Assembly (NCBI RefSeq): GCF_053078305.1
Contig: NZ_CP166879.1
Length of the DNA stretch: 64,000 bases
Direction: 5' to 3' (one strand)
Numbering within the stretch: position 1 is the stretch's first letter; every line of letters begins with the position of its first letter. Below are positions 7,386-37,180 of the stretch, piece by piece. The notes under the pieces were generated by a model. It was not told the origin of the DNA, made no database searches, and saw only the letters and a program-made list of their open reading frames with translations. The position numbers and the translations under genes were made by a program.

Positions 7386-8147
7386 TTACCGCCACATCGC
7401 GTGTTTATCGCGATAGCAATCGACCCACATCGCCGTCGCGCCACAAACGGCAACGGGCATGATGAACAGATTAAGCAGCGGGATCATCGTAAACAGGCTG
7501 GTTAAAGCACCAAACTGCATATTGGTGATTTTGCGTGTGCGCAGGGCGGTGCGCATCTCTTTAAACGGCACTTTGTGGTTATCGAAGGGGTAATCGCAAT
7601 ACTGGATGGCTAACATCCAGGCGCTAAACAGGAACCACAGTACCGGCGCGACGGTTTGCCCAATACCAGGGATGAAGTAAAGAATTAGTAATACAATTGC
7701 GCGCGGCAGATACCAGGCAAATTTTTGCCATTCGCGTTTCATGATTCGCGGCACATCTTTCATGATACCGAAAATCCCGGTATCTGGCGGTGTAGCGCCA
7801 GTCAATCGTGCTTCCAGTTGTTCAGCCAATAAACCGTTAAACGGAGCGGCAATCCAGTTAGCAATCGTGGAGAAGAAATAGCCAAACACTAACAGCACAG
7901 AGATGACAGCCAGAGGCCACAACAGATAGCTCAGCCATTGTAACCAGTCCGGAACATAACTCATGAGAGTCGGGATCCAGACATCGAGTTGCGTAAAGAG
8001 CCACCAGAATGCGCCCCCCATCAACAAAATATTGACCAGCAGCGGTAAAATAACGAAACGCCGAATCCCAGGTTGCGAGACGAGCTTCCAGCCTTGCGCA
8101 AAATAGTAAAAACCGCTGCGTGGGGCAGATGTGAATGATGAAACCAT
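7386..8147 (-). CDS. cysZ: sulfate transporter CysZ
   Basis: 253 aa polytopic membrane ORF; upstream of cysK on same strand, divergent from zipA. Confidence 0.9.
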
Positions 8148-8376
8148 AATCAGGATGAGCTCCTTTTGACCAATCCCAGGAAAATTGTGCGTATTTTACC
8201 GGGTAATTGCGCAATGGACAGTTAGGATATGTTCGAAAAAACAGCAAAAAGCACGATTTCATCTATCTTTGTGCTGTGAAAGTTAATAGTGCACTTGCAC
8301 TTGAGGTAATCGGCAAATACTCTTAGTGAGTAAATGTTTGCCGTGGTGGCAAGGTGTTAGAACAACAGAGAATATA

Positions 8377-9375
8377 ATGATGCAGGATTTGCGTCTGATA
8401 TTAATCATTGTTGGCGCGATCGCCATAATCGCTTTACTGGTACATGGTTTCTGGACCAGCCGTAAAGAACGATCTTCTATGTTCCGCGATCGGCCATTAA
8501 AACGAATGAAGTCAAAACGTGACGACGATTCTTATGACGAGGATGTCGAAGATGATGAGGGCGTTGGTGAGGTTCGTGTTCACCGCGTGAATCATGCCCC
8601 GGCTAACGCCCAGGAGCATGAGGCTGCTCGTCCGTCGCCGCAACACCAGTACCAACCGCCTTATGCGTCTGCGCAGCCGCGTCAACCGGTCCAGCAGCCG
8701 CCTGAAGCGCAGGTACCGCCGCAACATGCTCCGCGTCCAGCGCAGCCGGTGCAGCAACCCGTGCAGCAGCCTGCCTATCAGCCGCAGCCTGAACAGCCGT
8801 TGCAGCAGCCAGTTTCGCCACAGGTCGCGCCAGCGCCGCAGCCAGTGCATTCAGCACCGCAACCGGCACAACAGGCTTTCCAGCCTGCAGAACCCGTAGC
8901 GGCACCACAGCCTGAGCCTGTAGCGGAACCGGCTCCAGTTATGGATAAACCGAAGCGCAAAGAAGCGGTGATTATCATGAACGTCGCGGCGCATCACGGT
9001 AGCGAGCTAAACGGTGAACTGCTTCTTAACAGCATTCAACAAGCGGGCTTCATTTTTGGCGATATGAATATTTACCATCGTCATCTTAGCCCGGATGGCA
9101 GCGGCCCGGCGTTATTCAGCCTGGCGAATATGGTGAAACCGGGAACCTTTGATCCTGAAATGAAGGATTTCACTACTCCGGGCGTCACTATCTTTATGCA
9201 GGTACCGTCTTACGGTGACGAGCTGCAGAACTTCAAGCTGATGCTGCAATCTGCGCAGCATATTGCCGATGAAGTGGGCGGTGTCGTGCTTGACGATCAG
9301 CGCCGTATGATGACTCCGCAGAAATTGCGCGAGTACCAGGACATCATCCGCGAAGTTAAAGACGCCAACGCCTGA
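8377..9375 (+). CDS. zipA: cell division protein ZipA
   Basis: Start placed at [26 protein letters not shown] (N-terminal TM anchor), long P/Q-rich linker, C-terminal FtsZ-binding domain; track ORF 8326 start is an upstream extension. Confidence 0.88.
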
Positions 9376-9436
9376 TACACTTAAGGCAAATTAACTCCTC
9401 TTCGAACCCCCGCTTGTCGGGGGTTTTTAGCATTGA

Positions 9437-11461
<2,025 letters not shown>

Positions 11462-24809: not shown

Positions 24810-25775
24810 ATGACAAAGTATGCATTAGTCGGTGATGTGGGCGGCACCAACGCACGTCTTGCTCTGTGTGATATTGCCAGTGGTGAAATCTCGCAGGCTA
24901 AGACCTATTCAGGGCTTGATTACCCCAGCCTCGAAGCGGTCATTCGCGTTTATCTTGAAGAACATAAGGTCGAGGTGAAAGACGGCTGTATTGCCATCGC
25001 TTGCCCAATTACCGGTGACTGGGTGGCAATGACCAACCATACCTGGGCGTTCTCAATTGCCGAAATGAAAAAGAATCTCGGTTTTAGCCATCTGGAAATT
25101 ATTAACGATTTTACCGCTGTATCGATGGCGATCCCGATGCTGAAAAAAGAGCATCTGATTCAGTTTGGTGGCGCAGAGCCGATAGAAGGTAAGCCTATTG
25201 CGGTTTACGGTGCCGGAACGGGGCTTGGGGTTGCGCATCTGGTCCATGTCGATAAGCGTTGGGTAAGCTTGCCGGGCGAAGGCGGTCACGTTGATTTTGC
25301 GCCGAATAGTGAAGAAGAGGCCATTATCCTCGAAATATTGCGTGCGGAAATTGGTCATGTTTCGGCGGAACGCGTGCTTTCTGGCCCAGGGCTGGTGAAT
25401 TTGTATCGCGCAATTGTGAAAGCTGACAACCGCCTGCCAGAAAATCTCAAGCCAAAAGATATTACCGAACGCGCGCTGGCTGACAGCTGCACCGATTGCC
25501 GCCGTGCGTTGTCGCTGTTTTGCGTCATTATGGGCCGTTTTGGCGGCAATCTGGCGCTCAATCTCGGGACATTTGGCGGCGTGTTTATTGCGGGCGGTAT
25601 CGTGCCGCGCTTCCTTGAGTTCTTCAAAGCCTCTGGTTTCCGTGCCGCATTTGAAGATAAAGGGCGCTTTAAAGAATATGTCCATGATATTCCGGTGTAT
25701 CTCATCGTCCATGACAATCCGGGTCTTCTCGGTTCCGGTGCACATTTACGCCAGACCTTAGGTCACATTCTGTAA
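24810..25775 (+). CDS. glk: glucokinase
   Basis: 321 aa; N-terminal ATP-binding motif [16 protein letters not shown]. Confidence 0.95.
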
Positions 25776-25993
25776 ATCCTTCCTGTTATATCGGGAGGTA
25801 ACTCTCCCGATAATCTTTTAAATCATACAGTTAATTCAATTTTTCTTTGTGTCCCCTCACAAGGCCGACCTGCGTCACACTTCCGTACAGCGGGATTAAT
25901 TCTCCAGTAAATGCATTATTTGTCTGGTAACGGCGATTTGTTTTGCACGTTCATAATTTCACTCGTCAACTATCACTGAACGAGGAATTAACG

Positions 25994-26320
25994 ATGAGTA
26001 AGAAACTGATTGCCTTATGTGCCTGCCCGATGGGCCTGGCTCACACCTTTATGGCCGCTCAGGCGCTGGAAGAAGCAGCGGTAGAAGCCGGTTATGAAGT
26101 GAAAATTGAAACCCAGGGCGCGGACGGTATCCAGAATCGCCTGACGGCGCAGGATATCGCCGAAGCGACCATCATCATCCACTCCGTGGCAGTTACCCCG
26201 GAAGATAACGAACGTTTCGAATCACGCGACGTTTATGAAATCACTTTGCAGGACGCAATTAAAAACGCTGCGGGCATCATCAAAGAAATCGAAGAGATGA
26301 TTGCCTCTGAACAACAGTAA
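25994..26320 (+). CDS. fryB: PTS fructose-like EIIB component
   Basis: Start placed at MSKKLIALCACPMGLAHTFMAAQ (108 aa) with active-site Cys in CACPMG; track ORF has 17-codon upstream extension. Confidence 0.85.
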   Translation: MSKKLIALCACPMGLAHTFMAAQALEEAAVEAGYEVKIETQGADGIQNRLTAQDIAEATIIIHSVAVTPEDNERFESRDVYEITLQDAIKNAAGIIKEIEEMIASEQQ

Positions 26321-26341
26321 TATTCGACAGGGATAATTGTT

Positions 26342-27589
26342 ATGGCCATTAAAAAACGCAGTGCAACCGTTGTGCCTGGCGCATCCGGTGCGGCAGCGGC
26401 AGTTAAGAATCCGCAGGCCTCTAAAACCAGCTTCTGGGGTGAACTCCCGCAGCATGTGATGTCAGGGATTTCACGCATGGTGCCGACCTTAATTATGGGC
26501 GGTGTGATCCTCGCTTTCAGCCAGTTGATTGCTTATAGCTGGCTTAAAATTCCTGCTGAGATCGGCATCATGGATGCTCTTAATAGCGGGAAATTCTCCG
26601 GTTTCGACCTCTCCTTACTTAAATTTGCCTGGCTGTCGCAGTCCTTCGGCGGCGTGTTGTTTGGTTTTGCCATTCCGATGTTTGCTGCATTTGTGGCGAA
26701 CTCTATCGGTGGCAAACTGGCGTTCCCGGCTGGTTTTATCGGCGGCTTGATGTCTACCCAGCCGACGCAACTGCTGAACTTCGATCCCAGCACTATGCAA
26801 TGGGCGACCTCTTCGCCGGTGCCGTCCACCTTCATTGGTGCGCTGATTATATCTATCGTTGCTGGTTACCTTGTGAAATGGATGAACCAGAAAATCCAGT
26901 TACCGGATTTCCTGTTAGCGTTCAAAACCACATTTTTGCTACCGATTCTTTCCGCCATTTTTGTCATGCTGGCGATGTACTACGTCATCACCCCCTTTGG
27001 GGGCTGGATCAACGGCGGTATCCGTACTGTGCTGACTGCCGCAGGTGAGAAGGGCGCGCTGATGTACGCAATGGGGATCGCCGCGGCGACAGCAATCGAC
27101 CTTGGTGGCCCGATCAACAAAGCCGCAGGTTTTGTTGCCTTCAGCTTTACCACTGACCACGTATTACCGGTCACCGCACGTTCTATCGCTATCGTTATTC
27201 CGCCGATTGGTCTGGGTCTGGCGACCATTATCGACCGTCGTTTAACCGGCAAACGCCTGTTCAGCGCACAACTTTATCCGCAGGGTAAGACCGCGATGTT
27301 CCTTGCCTTTATGGGGATCAGTGAGGGTGCGATTCCGTTTGCGCTGGAAAGCCCCATCACCGCCATTCCGTCGTATATGGTCGGCGCGATTGTCGGCTCA
27401 ACCGCCGCTGTCTGGCTGGGCGCAGTGCAATGGTTCCCGGAATCCGCTATCTGGGCATGGCCGCTGGTCACTAACCTGGGCGTCTATATGGCGGGGATCG
27501 CGCTGGGGGCAGTCATAACTGCGCTGATGGTGGTGTTCCTGCGTCTGATGATGTTCCGTAAAGGCAAATTGTTAATCGATAGCCTGTAA
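26342..27589 (+). CDS. fryC: PTS fructose-like EIIC permease
   Basis: 415 aa polytopic membrane ORF directly after the IIB gene. Confidence 0.88.
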
Positions 27590-27603
27590 GAAGGAAAATC
27601 CAG

Positions 27604-28689
27604 ATGACATTACTCGCTTCGCTGCGCGACTGGCTTAAGGCGCAACAACTGGATGCGGTGCTTCTCTCCTCACGGCAGAACAAACAGCCGCATCTGGGGA
27701 TCTCCACCGGATCAGGCTATGTGCTGATTAGCCGTGAAAGTGCGCACATTCTGGTGGACTCGCGCTATTACGCGGATGTAGAAGCCCGCACGCAAGGTTA
27801 CCAGCTGCATTTGCTTGACGCGACGCACACGCTTACAACCATCGCCAGGCAAATCATTGCCGATGAGCAGTTGCAAACGCTCGGTTTTGAAGGCCAGCAG
27901 GTGAGTTGGGAAACCGCGCACCGCTGGCAGTCTGAACTCAATGCGAAACTGGTAAGCGCCACGCCGGATGTGCTGCGGCAAATCAAAACGCCAGAGGAGG
28001 TGGAGAAAATCCGCCTTGCCTGTGGGATTGCCGATCGCGGTGCAGAGCATATTCGCCGCTTTATTCAGGCGGGGATGAGCGAGCGCGAGATAGCCGCTGA
28101 ACTGGAGTGGTTTATGCGCCAGCAGGGCGCAGAAAAAACCTCTTTTGACACCATTGTCGCCAGTGGCTGGCGTGGGGCGCTGCCGCACGGCAAAGCCAGC
28201 GACAAGATTGTTGCAGCGGGCGAGTTTGTCACTCTCGATTTCGGTGCGCTGTATCAGGGCTACTGCTCTGATATGACGCGCACCTTGCTGGTGAATGGCG
28301 AAGGGGTGAGCGCCGAATCTCATCCGCTGTTTAACGTCTATCAGATTGTTTTGCAGGCACAGCTCGCAGCAATCTCTGCAATTCGCCCCGGCGTGCGCTG
28401 CCAGCAGGCTGACGACGCCGCGCGCCGGGTGATTACCGAGGCAGGATTTGGCGACTATTTTGGTCACAACACCGATCATGCTATTGGCATTGAAGTACAC
28501 GAAGATCCGCGCTTTTCACCGCGGGATACCACGACGCTACAGCCAGGCATGTTACTGACCGTGGAGCCGGGGATTTATTTGCCAGGGCAAGGGGGCGTGC
28601 GCATCGAGGATGTTGTGCTGGTCACCCCGCAAGGCGCAGAAGTGCTCTACGCCATGCCGAAAACAGTGTTGCTCACGGGAGAGGCATAA
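27604..28689 (+). CDS. ypdF: M24-family Xaa-Pro aminopeptidase
   Basis: 361 aa; pita-bread fold metal-ligand region ([13 protein letters not shown]..., [10 protein letters not shown]). Confidence 0.85.
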
Positions 28690-29726
28690 TGGATTTATCG
28701 CTATTAAAAGCGTTGAGCGAGGCAGATGCGATCGCCTCCTCGGAACAGGAAGTGCGGCAGATCCTGCTGGAAGAAGCGGATCGCCTGCAAAAAGAAGTGC
28801 GATTTGATGGTCTGGGATCGGTGCTGATCCGCCTCAATGAATCGACAGGTCCGAAAGTGATGATCTGTGCGCATATGGACGAAGTTGGATTTATGGTGCG
28901 CAGTATCTCCCGCGAAGGCGCAATTGATGTGCTGCCGGTTGGCAACGTGCGCATGGCTGCCCGCCAGCTGCAGCCGGTGCGCATCACCACCCGTGAAGAG
29001 TGCAAAATTCCAGGCCTGCTTGACGGCGACCGGCAGGGGAATGATGTCAGCGCCATGCGCGTGGATATTGGCGCGCGCTCGTATGACGAAGTGATGCAGG
29101 CGGGAATTCGTCCAGGCGATCGCGTCACGTTCGATACCACTTTTCAGGTTCTCCCCCACCAGCGGGTGATGGGGAAAGCCTTTGATGACCGCCTCGGTTG
29201 CTATCTGCTGGTGACGTTACTACGTGAGCTGCACGACGCCGAACTGCCTGCGGAAGTGTGGCTGGTGGCAAGTTCCAGCGAAGAGGTGGGATTACGCGGC
29301 GGGCAAACTGCCACCCGCGCGGTGTCGCCGGACGTCGCCATTGTCCTTGATACCGCCTGCTGGGCGAAAAACTTTGATTATGGCGCGGCTAACCATCGCC
29401 AGATTGGTAACGGCCCGATGCTGGTGTTAAGCGACAAGTCACTGATTGCGCCGCCAAAACTCACCGCCTGGATCGAAACCGTGGCGGCAGAAATTGGCGT
29501 GCCGTTACAGGCGGATATGTTCAGTAACGGCGGCACGGACGGTGGAGCGGTGCACTTAACCGGTACCGGCGTACCCACAGTGGTGATGGGGCCTGCCACC
29601 CGCCACGGACATTGCGCCGCGTCGATTGCCGATTGCCGCGACATTTTGCAGATGCAGCAGCTTTTATCTGCCCTTATTCAACGTCTTACGCGTGAGACGG
29701 TTGTTCAACTGACGGATTTCAGATGA
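28689..29726 (+). CDS. ypdE: M42-family aminopeptidase
   Basis: 345 aa; start overlaps ypdF stop (ATAATGG); M42 glutamyl aminopeptidase-like motifs ([15 protein letters not shown]). Confidence 0.85.
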
Positions 29727-29750
29727 TCTCCTGATTAACCCGGAGCGGTT

Positions 29751-32246
29751 ATGTTAACGATTCAATTTCTCTGTCCTTTGCCAAATGGTCTACATGCTCG
29801 TCCGGCGTGGGAGCTTAAAGAGCAGTGCAGCCAGTGGCAAAGCGAAATCACTTTTATTAACCATCGCCAGAACGCAAAGGCCGATGCCAAAAGCTCGCTG
29901 GCGCTGATTGGCACCGGCACCTTATTTAATGACAGTTGCAGCCTGAACATTAGCGGCAGCGATGAAGAGCAGGCGCGGCGCGTGCTGGAAGAGTACATCC
30001 AGGTGCGCTTTATCGACAGCGACAGCATCCAGCCAACGCAGGCAGAACTGACGGCGCATCCGCTGCCGCGTTCATTAAGTCGCCTGAACCCTGATTTACT
30101 GTATGGCAATGTGCTGGCAAGCGGCGTCGGTGTGGGGACGCTGACCCTGTTACAGAGCGACAGCCTCGACAGTTACCGGGCGATCCCCGCCAGTGCGCAA
30201 GATTCCACCCGGCTGGAGCACAGCCTGGCAACGCTTGCCGAGCAATTGAACCAGCAATTGCGTGAGCGTGACGGCGAAAGCAAAACTATCCTCAGCGCCC
30301 ATTTGTCGCTGATTCAGGATGATGAATTCGCGGGCAATATCCGTCGCCTGATGACAGAACAACATCAGGGGCTGGGGGCGGCGATTATCAGCAATATGGA
30401 GCAGGTTTGCGCCAAACTTTCTGCTTCTGCCAGTGATTATCTGCGCGAACGTGTTAGCGACATTCGCGATATCAGCGAACAGTTACTGCATATCACCTGG
30501 CCGGAACTGAAGCCGCGCAACAATCTGGTGCTGGAAAAACCGACTATTCTGGTGGCCGAGGATTTAACCCCAAGCCAGTTTTTAAGCCTGGATTTAAAAA
30601 ATCTTGCGGGCATGATTCTGGAGAAAACCGGGCGCACCTCGCATACCCTGATTCTGGCCCGCGCCTCGGCGATCCCGGTACTGAGCGGCCTGCCGCTGGA
30701 TGCGATTGCCCGTTATGCCGGGCAACCTGCAGTGCTTGACGCCCAGTGCGGCGTGCTGGCGATTAACCTGAATGACGCGGTGAGCGGTTATTATCAGGTC
30801 GCGCAGACGCTGGCGGATAAACGCCAAAAACAACAGGCGCAGGCTGCCGCGCAGCTGGCTTATTCCCGTGATAACAAGCGTATTGATATCGCGGCGAATA
30901 TTGGCACCGCTCTGGAAGCGCCTGGCGCGTTTGCCAACGGCGCGGAAGGCGTCGGGCTGTTCCGTACCGAAATGCTCTATATGGATCGCGACAGCGCGCC
31001 GGACGAGCAGGAGCAATTTGAAGCCTACCAGCAGGTGCTACTGGCAGCGGGCGACAAGCCGATTATCTTCCGCACAATGGACATCGGAGGCGATAAAAGC
31101 ATTCCTTATCTGAATATTCCCCAGGAAGAGAACCCGTTCCTCGGCTATCGCGCGGTACGTATTTACCCGGAATTTGCTGGCCTGTTCCGCACTCAACTGC
31201 GGGCCATTTTGCGCGCCGCCAGTTTCGGCAACGCCCAGTTGATGATCCCGATGGTCCACAGCCTCGATCAGATCTTATGGGTGAAGGGCGAGATCCAAAA
31301 AGCGATCGTTGAGCTTAAGCGCGATGGCCTGCGTCATGCAGAGACGATTACGCTGGGTATCATGGTGGAAGTGCCGTCGGTGTGCTACATCATCGATCAC
31401 TTCTGCGATGAGGTCGATTTCTTCAGTATCGGCTCCAACGATATGACCCAGTATCTGTATGCGGTCGATCGTAATAACCCGCGCGTATCGCCGCTATATA
31501 ACCCGATTACGCCATCGTTCCTGCGCATGTTGCAGCAAATAGTTACCACTGCGCATCAGCGGGGCAAATGGGTAGGCATTTGCGGTGAACTGGGCGGTGA
31601 AAGCCGTTATCTGCCGCTACTGCTTGGGCTGGGCCTGGATGAGCTGAGTATGAGTAGCCCGCGCATTCCGGCGGTGAAAAGCCAGCTTCGTCAACTGGAT
31701 AGCGAGGCGTGTCGGGAACTGGCACGTCAGGCGTGTGAATGTCGCAGCGCGCAGGAAATTGAAGCGTTACTCACCGCCTTTACGCCGGAAGAAGACGTTC
31801 GCCCGCTGCTGGCGCTGGAGAATATCTTCGTTGATCAGGCCTTTAGCAATAAAGAGCAGGCGATCCAGTTCCTGTGCGGTAACCTCGGCGTTAACGGGCG
31901 CACTGAACATCCGTTCGAGCTGGAAGAGGATGTCTGGCAGCGGGAAGAGATTGTCACCACTGGCGTTGGTTTTGGCGTGGCGATCCCGCACACCAAATCT
32001 CAGTGGATCCGTCATTCCAGTATCAGCATTGCCCGGCTGGCGAAACCGGTTGACTGGCAGTCAGAAATGGGCGAAGTCGAACTGGTGATCATGCTGACGC
32101 TGGGTGCTAACGAAGGGATGAATCATGTGAAAGTCTTCTCGCAGCTGGCGCGTAAACTGGTGAATAAAAACTTCCGCCAGTCGTTGTTTGCCGCGCAAGA
32201 TGCACAAAGTATCCTGACGCTGCTGGAAACAGAATTAACCTTCTGA
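29751..32246 (+). CDS. fryA: multiphosphoryl transfer protein (HPr-like + enzyme I-like + EIIA-like domains), fructose-like PTS
   Basis: 831 aa; N-terminal HPr-like domain (LPNGLHARPA), central EI domain paralogous to ptsI in this window, C-terminal IIA-like. Confidence 0.88.
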   Translation: MLTIQFLCPLPNGLHARPAWELKEQCSQWQSEITFINHRQNAKADAKSSLALIGTGTLFNDSCSLNISGSDEEQARRVLEEYIQVRFIDSDSIQPTQAELTAHPLPRSLSRLNPDLLYGNVLASGVGVGTLTLLQSDSLDSYRAIPASAQDSTRLEHSLATLAEQLNQQLRERDGESKTILSAHLSLIQDDEFAGNIRRLMTEQHQGLGAAIISNMEQVCAKLSASASDYLRERVSDIRDISEQLLHITWPELKPRNNLVLEKPTILVAEDLTPSQFLSLDLKNLAGMILEKTGRTSHTLILARASAIPVLSGLPLDAIARYAGQPAVLDAQCGVLAINLNDAVSGYYQVAQTLADKRQKQQAQAAAQLAYSRDNKRIDIAANIGTALEAPGAFANGAEGVGLFRTEMLYMDRDSAPDEQEQFEAYQQVLLAAGDKPIIFRTMDIGGDKSIPYLNIPQEENPFLGYRAVRIYPEFAGLFRTQLRAILRAASFGNAQLMIPMVHSLDQILWVKGEIQKAIVELKRDGLRHAETITLGIMVEVPSVCYIIDHFCDEVDFFSIGSNDMTQYLYAVDRNNPRVSPLYNPITPSFLRMLQQIVTTAHQRGKWVGICGELGGESRYLPLLLGLGLDELSMSSPRIPAVKSQLRQLDSEACRELARQACECRSAQEIEALLTAFTPEEDVRPLLALENIFVDQAFSNKEQAIQFLCGNLGVNGRTEHPFELEEDVWQREEIVTTGVGFGVAIPHTKSQWIRHSSISIARLAKPVDWQSEMGEVELVIMLTLGANEGMNHVKVFSQLARKLVNKNFRQSLFAAQDAQSILTLLETELTF

Positions 32247-32248
32247 CG

Positions 32249-33106
32249 TTAGCCCTGAAAACGGGCGCTGTACTCTCCCGGCGTCAGACCAAACTGACGC
32301 CGGAAAACGCGACAAAAATAGTCGCTATCCGGAAAACCGCAACGCTGTGCCACTTCATGAATTGACAGATGATATTTCTGCAAAATCATCCTCGCCTTCG
32401 CCATTCGCACCCAACGCACATATTCGATAAAACGCATTGTTCCATGCTGAGCAAACAGTTTTGACAGATGATTGGGCGTGATATTAAAAAACTGTGCCAC
32501 GCTCTCGCGGGTGAGCTGCTGGGCATAATTATCCTGAACCCAGTTACAAATGCTGTGATAGAGAAAATCGCCGCGCGGCTGCGAATTGCCCGGTGGCATA
32601 TTCACCACGTTGCGGCAAAGATGCAGCAAACTTAACACCAGTGGCTGAATGATATTCTGCTCCAGCGGCGAACGGCTAAGATGGGTGAGGGCGGTAAGTA
32701 TCGCTTCACCTTCACCGCGTTGCAGGCTGGGAAGCTGGATCTGGCGGGCTGGATGCAACAACGACGTGGTGCGGCTATCGTAAAACGATAACCCAAGCCA
32801 GGTCGGTGCGAACACCAGACTTAACAGCATCACCGGTTTGTTGTTGATCGGTAAATTAGCCGCGCGCGCCGGAATAAACAGCATTTCTCCTTCCACCAAA
32901 CGTTGCTGCTTTGCTTCCAGCAGATTGCCGTATTCGCCGCGCAGCACGATATCCAGACGGGGAAAATCAATACATAAACTGCCCACCGGCAACGAGGCAG
33001 GCTGGCTGGCAAACCAGACGCGCCCCAGTAGTTGCGGGTTAAGCACCAGGCCGCTGAACAGATCGGCGAAAAATTGTTGATCGGCGGGCAAGCCTGGTGC
33101 TTTCAT
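32249..33106 (-). CDS. ypdC: AraC-family transcriptional regulator
   Basis: 285 aa; C-terminal AraC HTH (SIHEVAQRCGFPDSDYFCRVFRRQFGLTPGEY). Confidence 0.85.
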   Translation of the reverse strand: MKAPGLPADQQFFADLFSGLVLNPQLLGRVWFASQPASLPVGSLCIDFPRLDIVLRGEYGNLLEAKQQRLVEGEMLFIPARAANLPINNKPVMLLSLVFAPTWLGLSFYDSRTTSLLHPARQIQLPSLQRGEGEAILTALTHLSRSPLEQNIIQPLVLSLLHLCRNVVNMPPGNSQPRGDFLYHSICNWVQDNYAQQLTRESVAQFFNITPNHLSKLFAQHGTMRFIEYVRWVRMAKARMILQKYHLSIHEVAQRCGFPDSDYFCRVFRRQFGLTPGEYSARFQG

Positions 33107-33118
33107 GAAAGTTCCCGA

Positions 33119-33853
33119 TTAAAGATGCATTAACTGGCGAAATTCTTTTACTTTGCTGCGGCTGACTGGCACTTCAAAATCCAGATCTTTCAGCCGCAGA
33201 ATATAGGTGTTATTAAACCACGGTTCGATCTCGCGGATTTTGTTCAGATTGACACAAAATGAGCGATGGCAGCGGAAAAAATGCGACGGCGGCAGTTTGC
33301 TGCAAAATTCGGTAATGTTCATCGGCATTACGTAGGATTCACGCCGCGTATAAACAAAGGTCATTTTCTCGTGCGCTTCGGCGTAATAGATATCGTTAAT
33401 GGGGGTGACGATTATTCGCTCATCTTTCACCAGATTAATGGTGTCATTCTCACGCGTTACCGTCGCGGCAGGCGTGCTGCTGGTCTGCTGTTGTTGCCAG
33501 GCCGCTTCCAGTTTTTGCAGCATCCCGGTAATGCGTGACTCCTGATACGGTTTGAGAATGTAGTCAAACGCCTCCAGTTCGAACGCTTCTACCGCATGTT
33601 CTTTCCACGCGGTGATGAACACAATAAACGGTTTATGGGCGAACTGGCTGATGTTTTGTGCCAGCAACACACCATCCAGCGACGGAATATTGATATCCAG
33701 AAAAATGGCGTCGACGCGGTTATGCTGCAAAAACTTCAACACGTCCAGACCGTCGTCAAAGGTGCCGACAATCTCCATCTGGCTGTGCTCTTTAATTAGC
33801 CAGCTCAGTTCCTGTTGTGCCAGGAATTCGTCTTCAACAATGATGACTTTCAC
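33119..33853 (-). CDS. ypdB: LytTR-family response regulator (two-component partner of ypdA)
   Basis: Receiver domain (VKVIIVEDE..., D in FLDINIP) plus C-terminal LytTR; start chosen as GTG giving 244 aa, track ORF extends to 33871. Confidence 0.8.
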   Translation of the reverse strand: MKVIIVEDEFLAQQELSWLIKEHSQMEIVGTFDDGLDVLKFLQHNRVDAIFLDINIPSLDGVLLAQNISQFAHKPFIVFITAWKEHAVEAFELEAFDYILKPYQESRITGMLQKLEAAWQQQQTSSTPAATVTRENDTINLVKDERIIVTPINDIYYAEAHEKMTFVYTRRESYVMPMNITEFCSKLPPSHFFRCHRSFCVNLNKIREIEPWFNNTYILRLKDLDFEVPVSRSKVKEFRQLMHL

Positions 33854-33867
33854 AATATCACTCCGGC

Positions 33868-35565
33868 TCAAAGCAATAACGTAGCCTGTGAGGCGACTGG
33901 GGTGCGTTGGTTAGGAATGTAAAACGCAATTTCCGTTCCTGGTTCCAGGCGGCGGATATGCAGCCCCTCGCCATACAATAACTTCACGCGATGATGAACA
34001 TTCAGCAGGCCAATTTTATTGCCCGGCATTTCATTCGCTTCGACCCGCTCAATCACCTTTGGATCGATGCCGTGCCCGGTATCCCGCACCGCAATGCGTA
34101 CCCGATTGCCGCACTCTGCAACGCTGATGGTGACAACGCCTTTACCTTTGCAAGGCTGGATACCGTGGACAATGGCATTCTCCACCAACGGCTGGATCAG
34201 CAGGCTGGGAATGCAGCAATTCACCTCTTCATCAATATCATAGATAACCGTGAGCTTGTCGCCAAAGCGGGCCTGCTCAATGGCAATATAGTCTTTAATT
34301 TGATACAGCTCTTTTTTGATATCGATTTGCTCATCGTCTTTTAATTCAATGTTATAGCGCAGATAACGCGACAGATTAAAGATCAGCTGGCGAGCGGTAT
34401 CCGGATTCAGACGGATCGACGATGAAATAGCGTTCAGAGCGTTAAACAGAAAATGGGGATTAATTTTGCTTTGCAGGGCGCGAAGCTCTGCCTTATTTGC
34501 CATTTCACGTAGCTGCTCGGCGCGTGAAACCTCCAGTTGCGTGGAGATGATTTGCGACAGACCAACCGCCATTTCCTGTAATGACGAGGTTATCTGATGC
34601 GCGTGGCAGTAGTAAATTTTCAGCGTTCCGGTCACAACGCCTTTCTCCCACAATGGGATCACCAGCATGGAATGAATCTCTGGTGTGCGGTGGGCTTCAT
34701 CATTGTTTTTAATGATGATTTTTCCGTAATTCATCGCCTGACGGGTAGTCGGGCTAATGAAGTCATCGCCATTCTGATAGTTATGTTCACCCACGCCAAC
34801 ATAGGCCAGCACATGATCGGTATTGGTAATCGCCACCGCATCGGCGTGAATGTCATCGCGAATAATTTCACAAACTTTGCGTAATGACTCGCTATTGACA
34901 TGGCGAAACAGAGGTAGCGTTTTGTTGGCGATATCCAGCGCCAACTTGGCCTGCCGCGCGGCGCTGGCCTCTTTTTCGCCCTCAACGCTTTGCACCAGAA
35001 GCACAATAAAGCCGATACAGACGCTGCCGAGGATCATTGGAATCCCGATTTTAGAGACGATATCGATCCCCAACGCGGTAGTTGGTGCCCAGACAATCAC
35101 CAGAATCATGGTCAACGTTTCACACAACATGCCGCCGAGAATACCGACGCGCCAGCGCTGTGCTTTGGGGATTTTCAGGTTGATCCAGCCCGATATACAA
35201 CCAGCCAGAATGCTGGTGATAAAGCAGGGGATCGCCGTCACGCCACCGATATCAATTAAATAACGATGAATACCCGCAATCACGCCGGTAATGATGCCCA
35301 CCCACGGGCCAAACAGAATCCCGCCGGACATCACCGCGATAATACGTACGTTCACCAGCGAGCCTTCTACGGGAACGCCGGACCAGGTGCTGAAGAGGGC
35401 GAACAGCGAGAAAATGGCGGTAACGGCGAGCAACTCTTTCGGTGAGTGTGCCGACTTGTGCAACAGTTCGCGAAACAGGCGGATACGGATGAGAAAGAAC
35501 AGGCAGATAAGCATTAACGCTGCCCGATCGAAGACCGCCAGCAGCATGTTGAATATTTCGTGCAC
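33868..35565 (-). CDS. ypdA: LytS/5TMR-GAF-type sensor histidine kinase
   Basis: 565 aa; N-terminal TM sensor, GAF-like region, His-kinase H-box ([11 protein letters not shown]) and ATPase domain. Confidence 0.85.
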
Positions 35566-35941
35566 GGGTGACTCTGAATAAGGATTAAACCTCTATGATA
35601 GGTAACCTGAAGGCTGATGACCAGCAGGCCGTTTTTGAGGAAAAACCACAATTTTAAAAGGGGATTGATAGATAAATGGTGTATTAGCAATGCATCTCTT
35701 GATAATGCACTTCTGGTTAGTAAATTTATTGAAATTATTATGTTAATAAAATGAGTGGTAATTTTCTTGTTAGCGCAGATAATTTTCCTGTTTTTAAAGC
35801 AGAGTTCCTCATTTAACGTCATTAATAAAAATGTTCTAAAACGCTGGACAGACAGAAATTAATCAGGCTATTTTCAAAACAGCCACCATCGTGGCAGCGT
35901 CGCTCGGACGGTCCGGGCGCTAACGTTAATCTGAGGAAATT

Positions 35942-37180
35942 ATGGCTGACACTCGCCCTGAACGTCGCTTTACGCGCATTGATCGTCTCCCGCCCTATGT
36001 TTTTAACATTACCGCTGAACTGAAAATGGCTGCGCGTCGGCGCGGCGAAGATATTATCGATTTCAGTATGGGTAACCCGGACGGTGCGACTCCGCCGCAT
36101 ATCGTCGAAAAATTATGTACTGTGGCCCAGCGCCCGGACACGCATGGTTACTCCACTTCACGCGGTATTCCGCGGCTACGTCGCGCCATTTCCCGCTGGT
36201 ATCAGGATCGCTACGACGTTGAAATCGACCCGGAATCAGAAGCCATCGTCACTATTGGTTCGAAAGAGGGCCTGGCGCATCTGATGCTGGCGACACTGGA
36301 TCACGGTGACACAGTGCTGGTGCCGAATCCAAGTTACCCCATTCATATTTACGGCGCGGTGATTGCCGGGGCTCAGGTACGCTCAGTGCCGCTGGTGGAA
36401 GGTGTCGATTTCTTCAACGAACTGGAGCGCGCCATTCGTGAAAGTTATCCGAAACCGAAGATGATGATCCTCGGCTTCCCGTCGAACCCAACCGCGCAAT
36501 GCGTGGAACTGGAGTTCTTCGAAAAGGTTGTGGCGCTGGCGAAACGCTACGATGTGCTGGTGGTCCATGACCTGGCCTATGCCGATATCGTCTACGATGG
36601 CTGGAAAGCGCCGTCAATCATGCAGGTGCCGGGTGCACGCGATGTGGCGGTCGAGTTCTTTACGCTGTCGAAAAGCTACAACATGGCGGGCTGGCGTATC
36701 GGCTTTATGGTTGGCAACAAAACGCTGGTCAGCGCCCTGGCACGTATTAAAAGCTATCACGATTACGGCACCTTTACGCCGTTGCAGGTGGCGGCGATTG
36801 CGGCACTCGAGGGCGATCAACAGTGCGTGCGCGACATTGCCGAACAGTACAAACGCCGCCGTGATGTATTGGTTAAAGGGCTGCATGAAGCGGGCTGGAT
36901 GGTCGAAATGCCGAAGGCTTCGATGTATGTCTGGGCGAAAATACCGGAACCGTATGCTGCCATGGGCTCGCTGGAATTTGCCAAGAAATTGCTTAACGAA
37001 GCGAAGGTCTGTGTCTCTCCGGGGATTGGCTTTGGCGACTATGGTGATACGCATGTGCGCTTTGCACTGATTGAAAACCGCGACCGTATTCGTCAGGCGA
37101 TTCGTGGGATTAAAGCGATGTTCCGTGCCGACGGTTTACTACCCGCCAGCAGCAAACATATTCACGAAAACGCGGAATAA
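35942..37180 (+). CDS. alaC: PLP-dependent aminotransferase (glutamate-pyruvate type)
   Basis: 412 aa class I aminotransferase; PLP lysine context ([12 protein letters not shown]). Confidence 0.9.

Follow-up and report, generated by a model that had tools for sequence, protein, structure and literature searches.

Why would a sugar-type phosphotransferase system (PTS) be encoded with two aminopeptidases, and what could such a combination take up? The fry locus of Escherichia coli raises this question, and we examined it in a stretch of 64,000 nucleotides from contig NZ_CP166879.1 of NCBI RefSeq assembly GCF_053078305.1 (hereafter the window), where fryB, fryC, ypdF, ypdE and fryA lie at positions 25994-32246. 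Along with frv, frw and sgc, fry has been classed as an orphan PTS from the first reading of the E. coli genome onward, and substrates for them are still lacking in the best-studied bacterium. Our comparisons identify the peptidase pair, and not the transporter family, as the conserved core of a module in gut-associated Pseudomonadota, Bacillota and Actinomycetota. On balance we give an even chance to the reading that fry serves to break down a conjugate in which a sugar is joined to an amino acid or a peptide.

A first-pass annotation of this DNA, made from the sequence, had called the substrate undefined, and published work agrees: fryA lacks an assigned function, and the substrate of FryABC is stated to be unknown (PMC5364489). 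The literature that we searched yielded no defined substrate or inducer, no regulon for the neighboring AraC-family regulator YpdC, and no description of the cross-phylum pattern. A 48-bp in-frame deletion in fryA gave fitter cells after prolonged culture in lysogeny broth (LB), not on glucose minimal medium (PMC5364489), and deletion of ypdE lowered the fitness of strain UTI89 in the mouse bladder, with a competitive index of 0.30 (PMC8767336).

Gene content and packing of the fry operon

The locus itself is already known as an annotated core-genome operon of E. coli, and for the window alone it is an ordinary finding. Of 5426 complete E. coli genomes, 5424 gave a Megablast match to it, with at least 80% coverage in 5415, and the best match was 99.1% identical. 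RefSeq annotates the best match as fryB, fryC, ypdF, ypdE and ptsP/fryA, in the same order and flanked by glk and by ypdC-ypdB-ypdA-alaC. Each of the five window proteins that we looked up (FryC, YpdF, YpdE, FryA and YpdC) had a verbatim match in public E. coli records. The five genes of the operon are as follows.

25994..26320, plus strand: fryB, PTS EIIB of the fructose family, 108 aa (Pfam PTS_IIB, PF02302; TIGR00829)
26342..27589, plus strand: fryC, PTS EIIC, a divergent fructose-family member, 415 aa (Pfam PTS_EIIC, PF02378)
27604..28689, plus strand: ypdF, M24B aminopeptidase, prolidase-like, 361 aa (Pfam Creatinase_N and Peptidase_M24; NF007310; PDB 5CNX)
28689..29726, plus strand: ypdE, M42 aminopeptidase, 345 aa, start overlapping the ypdF stop by 1 nt (Pfam Peptidase_M42; NF007421; PDB 1YLO)
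29751..32246, plus strand: fryA, fused HPr-Enzyme I-EIIA(Fru), 831 aa (Pfam PTS-HPr, PEP-utilizers N/mobile/C and PTS_EIIA_2; TIGR01417, TIGR00848)

Both the list of open reading frames (ORFs) and direct translation gave five intact frames with no internal stops, separated in order by 21, 14, -1 and 24 nt. The tight same-strand packing described in the first-pass annotation is thereby confirmed, with no gap above 24 nt and Pfam support for each gene. The ypdF stop and the ypdE start have one base in common inside GGCATAATGGAT, which bears out the overlap that had been placed at ATAATGG. Such packing is not a chance pattern of ORFs, because the same five-gene order recurs in other genera at 60-95% amino-acid identity. 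Shine-Dalgarno-like sequences precede each of the five genes, and a signal scan counted promoters and terminators within the operon at or below the shuffled expectation; a split of the operon by internal signals was rejected on these counts. In addition, fryBC-ypdF-ypdE-fryA has been given as a single transcription unit, with a mild CpxR response noted for ypdF and fryA (PMC2731931). Taken together, the small gaps, the Shine-Dalgarno-like sequences, the lack of internal signals above chance, the order conserved across phyla and the published listing strongly imply co-transcription, and we consider it very probable that the genes form one functional, selected unit.

The PTS proteins carry the features expected for phosphate transfer. 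FryB scored above the curated cut-off of TIGR00829 (92.2 against 76.85 bits; PF02302 at 1.1e-19), and its phosphorylatable cysteine motif CACPMGLAHTFMAA is present (CACPMG). FryC passed PF02378 and scored 157.2 against a cut-off of 157.55 for the fructose EIIC model TIGR01427. FryA holds five Pfam domains and exceeded the cut-offs of TIGR01417 (503 against 341.7 bits) and TIGR00848 (140.9 against 103.5 bits); its score with the NCBIfam HPr model was slightly under the cut-off (40.1 against 47.9), and the Pfam HPr model passed. The motifs of FryA are intact: GLHARP with His15 of HPr, GRTSHT with His298 of Enzyme I, FFSIGSNDMTQY, GICGE, and AIPHT with His747 of EIIA. Its IIA domain also resembles PtsN.

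These assignments bear on a plainer explanation, in which fry would be an ordinary PTS for a free fructose- or mannose-like sugar and the co-transcribed peptidases would share no substrate with it, serving for example peptide turnover or nitrogen supply. FryB, FryC and the IIA domain of FryA do belong to the fructose family or lie at its margin. FryC, however, reached 98.9 bits with the FruA equivalog NF007984 (FruA IIBC), whose cut-off is 793, and so falls far short of equivalence to FruA. The outcome that the first-pass annotation had named as contrary to its reading, an ordinary fructose function with separately transcribed peptidases, accordingly found no support.

Structures have been solved for both peptidases. 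YpdF joins PF01321 to PF00557, scored 810 bits with NF007310 (cut-off 393), and is about 97% identical to PDB 5CNX (E = 4.6e-233). Its metal ligands D212, D223, H292, E321 and E335 are invariant in 25 M24 proteins of the module described below, that of the window included, and its cleavage specificity is reportedly for Xaa-Pro. YpdE matched PF05343 at 1.9e-85, scored 681.8 bits with NF007421 (cut-off 412), and is nearly identical to PDB 1YLO, the Shigella protein SF2450 (E = 1.2e-225). The catalytic His/Asp/Glu columns of the M42 metal site are invariant across 15 diverse homologs (alignment A2). In the window these columns hold H62-M-D-E, D166-D167, E197-E198, D221 and H306/H308, which are taken, as for the family in general, to be the co-catalytic metal ligands. 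A dodecameric YpdE has been mentioned as unpublished data, and the in vivo roles of the three M42 enzymes of E. coli were described as unknown in the same report (PMC3511314).

A peptidase–PTS module in three phyla

A search of the whole library with YpdE gave about 3500 M42 representatives at E <= 1e-10 and left a gap in identity: the enteric orthologs were at least 75% identical, the relatives that came next about 44%. The first two of these relatives that we examined both lay inside PTS operons. One of them read PRD regulator - M42 - Lac-type IIA - IIB - IIC - M24 - pyridoxal phosphate (PLP) enzyme - alanine dehydrogenase; its M24 protein was 35% identical to YpdF, and its EIIC was unrelated to FryC beyond the superfamily. 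We then surveyed one genome per GTDB species by M42 alignment and kept the best 80 loci. Their ORFs were called in six frames and annotated with iterative hidden Markov models (HMMs) seeded from Pfam-verified genes, and representative loci were spot-checked with Pfam and NCBIfam. The module that emerged is defined by this analysis and is not a curated family.

An M42 gene of the YpdE clade was found at 26 sampled loci (L009-L033 and the Vibrio locus L041) in three phyla, Pseudomonadota, Bacillota and Actinomycetota. PTS IIA, IIB and IIC genes were adjacent on the same strand at 25 of the 26, the remaining locus, from E. albertii (L022), being cut off by the start of its contig. Where enough contig was available, a Creatinase_N-type M24 gene was present at all loci except that of Streptococcus cuniculi. 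The window has the same arrangement, with its YpdE-clade M42 gene on the same strand beside PTS IIB and IIC and M24. Three gene orders were distinguished.

Lac-type: PRD regulator - M42 - IIA(Lac) - IIB - IIC(Lac) - M24, in Streptococcus, Clostridium, Terrisporobacter, Companilactobacillus, Faecalibacillus and Erysipelotrichales and, among Actinomycetota, in Collinsella and Olsenella
Fru-type: PRD regulator - IIA - IIB - IIC(Fru) - M24 - M42, in Caproiciproducens, Enterocloster, Hungatella and a metagenome-assembled genome of Lachnospiraceae
Enteric fry: the six-gene cassette, whose FryA is private and whose regulator is of the AraC family

A related Lac-type locus in Vibrio marinisediminis has the order IIB - IIC(Lac) - M24 - M42, with no PRD regulator detected.

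In a neighbor-joining tree of 100 M42 proteins, the YpdE-clade loci formed a single clade with the window, K. oxytoca, Salmonella and a metagenome locus (L007). About 40 M42 proteins at 32-37% identity, encoded with no PTS nearby and either solitary or in M42 triplets, fell elsewhere in the tree. Two more PTS-linked groups occupied separate clades: the frv-type loci, with the order IIA - IIBC(Fru) - M42 - PRD/EIIA regulator, and Lac-PTS loci with two M42 genes. From these separate clades it follows that M42 genes entered PTS operons on no fewer than three occasions. The first-pass annotation had considered the pairing of a PTS with peptidases unusual. It does depart from canonical PTS operons, but, as a module conserved in three phyla and with repeated recruitment of M42, it is recurrent and not rare.

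The Fru-type loci of Clostridia (L014, L019 and L033) share the order IIB-IIC-M24-M42 with E. coli, and their proteins are 74-77% (FryB), 57-64% (FryC) and 42-49% (peptidases) identical to those of E. coli. Judged by this order and identity, the Fru-type loci are true fry orthologs. The values for FryB and FryC are unusually high for a cross-phylum comparison, which points to horizontal transfer of the fry transporter. Across the module as a whole, the PTS is at some loci of the Fru and at others of the Lac family, but the two peptidases remain orthologous throughout.

Clustering of neighboring genes, with Pfam scans of selected neighbors, revealed one widespread additional gene, for a PLP enzyme of 390-400 aa identified as the C-S lyase PatB. 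It was present at 16 of 16 checked Gram-positive and actinobacterial loci, always at E <= 1e-60, and the three proteins tested individually exceeded the curated cut-off; no locus outside the Proteobacteria with sufficient flanking sequence lacked it. The gene directly follows the operon in the Lac-type and Fru-type orders, is divergent in most Coriobacteriia, and lies downstream in Olsenella sp. (L032); PatB was absent from every proteobacterial version of the module, including that of the window. An RDD-family membrane protein recurred at seven loci, and mannose-6-phosphate isomerase (after the module in Caproiciproducens) and alanine dehydrogenase were sporadic; no further recurrent genes were found downstream of PatB. 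The same clustering contained no recurrent glycoside hydrolase, deglycase, kinase or other sugar-processing gene. Amadori or Heyns systems (frl, gfr) and glycosylasparaginase pathways were also considered and set aside: every gene of the enteric cassette encodes a PTS protein, a peptidase or the AraC regulator, and the neighbor clustering recovered no recurrent enzyme of those pathways.

A constant peptidase pair combined with an exchangeable PTS family and regulator, and no recurrent sugar-processing gene, makes import of a conjugate the simplest reading. The hosts, which are mostly gut or fermentative organisms, and the E. coli phenotypes in peptide-rich LB and in the bladder lead to the same reading. 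The enteric cassette has amide-cleaving enzymes only, and the most economical substrate for it would be a sugar with an aminoacyl or peptidyl group so placed, for example on an amino sugar, that an aminopeptidase could free the sugar. For the versions that contain PatB, suitable substrates would be peptides of Pro-rich glycoproteins that bear glycosyl-Ser, -Thr or -Cys, with beta-elimination as the last step.

Transport of a plain sugar, introduced above, has some further points in its favor. In Caproiciproducens a mannose-6-phosphate isomerase comes after the module, in keeping with a simple hexose phosphate as the product, and YpdE and YpdF are reportedly general aminopeptidases (work on YpdE is cited in PMC3511314). 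Set against these are a peptidase-PTS linkage that has been kept in three phyla despite the swapped PTS family and regulator, which is hard to explain if there is no shared substrate, and a module in which no sugar-phosphate-processing gene recurs. Furthermore, an atlas of July 2026 that profiled 43 carbon sources made no mention of a fry signal and left the paralogous PTS and M42 operon sgcABCEQX still uncharacterized (PMC13343008). Overall, we regard an ordinary sugar PTS as unlikely.

A different proposal is that the PTS proteins signal and do not feed the cell. FryA and FryB would then form a private phosphorelay, comparable to PtsP-Npr-PtsN, that controls the activity of YpdE and YpdF or of YpdC, and FryC would be a sensor. 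FryA is indeed a complete private EI-HPr-IIA chain with a PtsN-like IIA domain, and the Gram-positive modules carry PRD/EIIA-containing regulators of the kind controlled by a PTS. Yet FryC is a full-length EIIC permease and the most strongly constrained protein in the operon, with a ratio of nonsynonymous to synonymous substitution rates (dN/dS) of about 0.02-0.05 and 92-95% identity between enteric genera; the Gram-positive modules use the general EI and HPr with ordinary IIA/IIB/IIC sets typical of transport; and Pfam found no phosphorylatable regulatory domain on the peptidases. This makes a signaling role very improbable.

The survey also returned M42 arrangements of other kinds. Three tandem M42 paralogs occur in many Bacillota and Chloroflexota (L054-L056, L075, L078, L080), and some genomes encode proteins of about 700 aa with two M42 domains (P0213, P0221 and P0228 among others). 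These arrangements suggest hetero-oligomeric complexes of the TET type unrelated to any PTS. We had considered the matches of about 700 aa as possible M24-M42 "Rosetta-stone" fusions, which was rejected when Pfam showed them to be tandem M42-M42 proteins. The E. coli proteins of 464-495 aa that combine M24 and M42 are probably products of read-through at the 1-nt overlap after frameshifts. At 7688-11056 of a locus from an uncultured member of the Mycoplasmataceae (L085), a Fru-type PTS and an M42 gene seem to be split among several ORFs, almost certainly as a result of translation with table 11, since UGA codes for Trp in this organism. This locus is probably another PTS-linked M42.

The mobile cassette and its candidate regulator

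The operon fryBC-ypdFE-fryA and ypdC together are a self-contained, horizontally mobile cassette of six genes, from which ypdAB are excluded. In Klebsiella oxytoca the five fry genes and their convergent AraC gene have a porin gene on one side and asnS on the other, with no two-component genes near. Salmonella enterica subsp. diarizonae has the cassette at the E. coli site (glk ... alaC), with ypdAB absent, and in Hafnia and Superficieibacter the match to the window is confined to the six cassette genes, the flanks being different. Two plasmids also have the whole cassette (7.1 kb), one of E. coli (198 kb) and one of Enterobacter hormaechei (517 kb; 71% identity); only these two were convincing, and most "plasmid" matches were mislabeled chromosomes. 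In the window, the genes that follow fryA are these.

32249..33106, minus strand: ypdC, regulator of the AraC family, 285 aa, convergent with fryA, the two stops 2 nt apart
33119-33853, minus strand: ypdB, LytTR response regulator (Pfam)
33868-35565, minus strand: ypdA, LytS-type kinase (5TMR-LYT/His_kinase; Pfam)

Pfam confirmed that an AraC regulator and a LytS/LytTR pair stand next to the operon in the window, as had been annotated. Beyond the window the two part company. It is the AraC gene that travels with the operon, whereas the two-component pair is a neighbor in some enteric genera only: ypdAB were found beside the cassette, between ypdC and alaC, in Escherichia, Citrobacter and Pseudocitrobacter. 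We rejected ypdAB as a part of the fry system, since the cassettes of Salmonella diarizonae, K. oxytoca, Hafnia and Superficieibacter do not have them alongside; their presence is an insertion or deletion polymorphism independent of fry. YpdA/YpdB has been described as a pyruvate-responsive system (PMC5552118). A further neighbor, alaC, was considered as an enteric counterpart of the Gram-positive PLP gene and dismissed, as its product has 19% identity and is not PatB, and the gene is absent from the cassette at other sites.

The position of ypdC is constant. At every enteric locus with enough contig it adjoins fry in convergent orientation, and this holds in at least three chromosomal contexts and on plasmids. 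YpdC has a C-terminal double helix-turn-helix of the AraC type (PF12833, HTH_18, at 9.6e-21, and PF00165, HTH_AraC), and its residues 47-281 match models of the RhaR, RhaS and AraC kind. The N-terminal half aligns with RhaR, RhaS and AraC, which fits a small-molecule inducer of the sugar type. No terminator hairpin separates the fryA and ypdC stops, which lie 2 nt apart (32246-32249); the corresponding distance is 16 nt in K. oxytoca, and in Salmonella it is 101 nt. Read-through at this junction, from either side, would yield RNA antisense to the opposite gene.

We aligned the final 230 nt before fryB from ten enteric genera, including Hafnia and loci at different chromosomal sites, and found a conserved block of about 130 nt. 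The elements in the window are listed from left to right.

25789..25812, plus strand: terminator-like hairpin after glk, a 10-bp stem TATCGGGAGGTAACTCTCCCGATA followed by the T-rich tail ATCTTTTAAA; upstream boundary of the fry unit
25864..25879, plus strand: CRP-like site GCCGACCTGCGTCACA, centered at about -92.5 from the predicted start, with an invariant TCACA half (25875-25879) and a weak left half in the ten-genus alignment
25881..25895, plus strand: inverted repeat TTCCG-N5-CGGGA, arms partly kept across genera, center variable
25903..25931, plus strand: direct repeats TCCAGTAAA (25903-25911, -61..-53) and TCTGGTAAC (25923-25931, -41..-33), conserved in the ten genera
25952..25957, plus strand: predicted -10 hexamer CATAAT, nearly invariant in the ten genera (CATACT in Hafnia), with a predicted transcription start at about 25964
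25982-25987, plus strand: Shine-Dalgarno sequence GAGGAA before fryB

Hairpin-type sites in the scanned region were not above chance, and the hairpin after glk is supported by its position behind the glk stop only. The promoter scan found neither a usable -35 hexamer nor a sigma-70 consensus promoter 5' of fryB. The direct repeats are 20 bp apart from start to start, and the proximal one overlaps the -35 region. From its conserved adjacency and from these conserved repeats, YpdC is a candidate activator of the fry promoter, with 25903..25931 as its putative site; CRP may bind at 25864..25879. No riboswitch or leader RNA was detected 5' of fryB: an Rfam search of 25000-36500 at E <= 1 returned a single weak match inside fryA (29833-29930, minus strand) to the small RNA Atu_L6 of Rhizobiales, at 21.5 bits against a gathering threshold of 100 and E = 0.3, which we regard as chance.

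In araBAD-type promoters, AraC binds direct-repeat half-sites that overlap the -35 region, and CRP binds upstream near -93. The fry region is similar in having direct repeats at -33..-61, no -35 hexamer, a TCACA-containing CRP-like site at -92.5 and a regulator of the AraC family; it differs in its poor left CRP half-site and in the 20-bp spacing of its repeats. By analogy, the conserved footprint may therefore mark an activator-dependent promoter of the AraC/CRP type.

A possible route for sugar–peptide conjugates and its known relatives

If fry does handle a conjugate, its parts could act in the following order. An inducer would activate YpdC, which would bind the repeats at -33 to -61 of the promoter that has no -35 hexamer, probably with the help of CRP at about -92.5. 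Phosphate from phosphoenolpyruvate would pass through His298, His15 and His747 of FryA to the cysteine of FryB, along motifs that are all present. FryC would import a sugar compound bearing an amino acid or short peptide, and the sugar would be phosphorylated on entry. In the cytoplasm, the metallo-aminopeptidases YpdE and YpdF would strip off amino-acid residues, leaving amino acids and a common sugar phosphate, or else a smaller conjugate to be finished by enzymes encoded elsewhere. In the Gram-positive versions, a lyase or racemase of the PatB type may deal with the last amino acid.

Several observations weigh against this scheme. YpdE and YpdF reportedly cleave ordinary, unmodified peptides in vitro, and the biochemistry therefore does not require a conjugate. 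Aminopeptidases need a free N-terminus and cannot take C-terminal residues, so that many glycopeptides would not be fully resolved by the pair. The enteric cassette comes without PatB, and its substrate may therefore differ from that of the Gram-positive modules. The gene-context calls come from custom iterative HMMs, with Pfam or NCBIfam checks of representative loci only. YpdC gave no peaks in chromatin immunoprecipitation with exonuclease digestion (ChIP-exo) in the conditions examined (PMC8464067). The genome of strain GDSC2227PM (NZ_CP135595.1, 8349-10694), the closest complete one, has fryC and ypdF annotated as frameshifted, and YpdF is truncated in Shigella dysenteriae (304 aa) and E. 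albertii (320 aa). Lastly, the YpdF allele of the window carries the substitution G291D.

The substitution deserves a closer description. Codon 291 of ypdF in the window (28474-28476) encodes Asp instead of Gly, beside the metal ligand His292. Gly291 is present in 107 of 107 enteric homologs, in 24 of 25 M24 proteins of the module across the three phyla, and in the five non-YpdF PDB structures with readable alignments. The exact G291D protein (WP_044190278.1) occurred on two contigs only in the protein collection. As an otherwise invariant glycine is replaced, the activity of YpdF in the window is uncertain, and the alignments suggest that this strain probably has an impaired enzyme.

Lesions of this kind raise the possibility that fry is a cryptic or decaying operon, inherited or acquired horizontally, that is useless in E. 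coli and persists by inertia. In keeping with this, no condition is known that induces the operon, YpdC stayed silent in ChIP-exo, frameshifts or truncations affect several lineages, an invariant active-site position is altered in the window, and loss of part of fryA was beneficial in prolonged LB culture. Selection tells against it. By the Nei-Gojobori method, comparing the window with five other species, dN/dS was 0.02-0.05 for fryB and fryC, 0.04-0.10 for ypdE, 0.03-0.12 for fryA, 0.10-0.15 for ypdF and 0.04-0.16 for ypdC. All six cassette genes are thus under purifying selection, and the values stay within 0.02-0.16 for every gene also within Escherichia. The locus is, moreover, intact in nearly all of the 5426 genomes, the catalytic and phosphorylation residues and the promoter footprint have been kept, and deletion of ypdE had a fitness cost in the bladder. 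We consider decay quite improbable.

Rates differ within the cassette. Between the window and Citrobacter, Pseudocitrobacter and Salmonella, the products of glk, mntH and alaC are 91-97% identical, FryC 92-95%, YpdC 76-82% and YpdF 64-73%. The cytoplasmic peptidase YpdF evolves much faster than the membrane permease FryC, which is the reverse of the usual pattern. The GC content of ypdF and ypdE is 57-58%, against 49% for the window. A deep split of fry alleles within E. coli, suggested by a dS of 0.2-0.3 relative to one genome (L018), was rejected; the whole region of that genome is only 92% identical, and it therefore represents a divergent Escherichia lineage and not an anomaly of this locus.

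Returning to the conjugate reading, we tentatively extend it, at rather less than even likelihood, to propose that fry and its Gram-positive kin serve a class of PTS substrates that has gone unrecognized: sugars with an aminoacyl or short peptidyl group, for which the peptidases, together with PatB where present, would take the place of the usual phospho-glycosidase and set free a standard sugar phosphate. Candidates in this class are N-aminoacyl-aminosugars, as well as amino acids of Pro-rich glycoproteins with an O- or S-linked glycosyl group. If true, the PTS would gain a novel class of substrates together with a novel release chemistry, and the bladder-fitness phenotype of ypdE could be explained. 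The same logic could apply to the orphan PTS-M42 operons frv and sgc, and to malX-malY, a long-known case of a PTS paired with a C-S lyase. In any case, the comparative pattern makes the substrate question more testable, as it supplies a candidate regulator and promoter, a restricted class of substrates, and natural pairs of strains with and without the module, such as L. sakei LT-13 and LK-145.

Among known systems, the direct ortholog of the window locus is fryBC-ypdFE-fryA with ypdC in E. coli K-12 (b2387-b2383, formerly ypdH-ypdD), where order, names, lengths and neighbors match. The window holds a different allele, with the YpdF substitution discussed above. The operons frvABXR and sgcXBCQAER are orphan PTSs that, like fry, co-encode an M42 protein (the paralogs FrvX and SgcX), so that presumably all three E. 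coli M42 genes lie inside PTS operons. In contrast to fry, frv and sgc have no M24 partner and other regulators, and their M42 proteins belong to clades apart from YpdE, with at most 36% identity.

A closer parallel in gene content is found in Latilactobacillus sakei LT-13, where LACBS_00568-00576 encode two PRD proteins, an aminopeptidase, Lac-type IIA, IIB and IIC, an RDD protein, a second aminopeptidase and MalY. This cluster is the same module as our Lac-type loci, consisting of M42, a Lac-family PTS, M24, PatB/MalY and PRD. It differs from fry in having a PTS of the Lac and not the Fru family, PRD instead of AraC regulation, the general EI and HPr in place of FryA, and a PLP lyase. The MalY protein of LT-13 was characterized as a broad-specificity amino-acid racemase with cystathionine beta-lyase activity, and the cluster was drawn in that report, not explained (PMC5845896).

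Finally, the alf-2 operon of Lacticaseibacillus casei, for fucosyl-alpha-1,6-GlcNAc-Asn, combines a transporter, the peptidase gene pepV and the PLP enzyme AsdA, as in the model proposed here, although PepV was dispensable in the pathway (PMC6960285). Its permease is not a PTS, and it relies on a fucosidase and a glycosylasparaginase, none of which is among the genes that recur beside the module; the likeness is one of analogy, not kinship. As an operon that handles a glyco-amino acid with a transporter, a peptidase gene and a PLP enzyme, alf-2 is nevertheless a working precedent for the conjugate model of fry.

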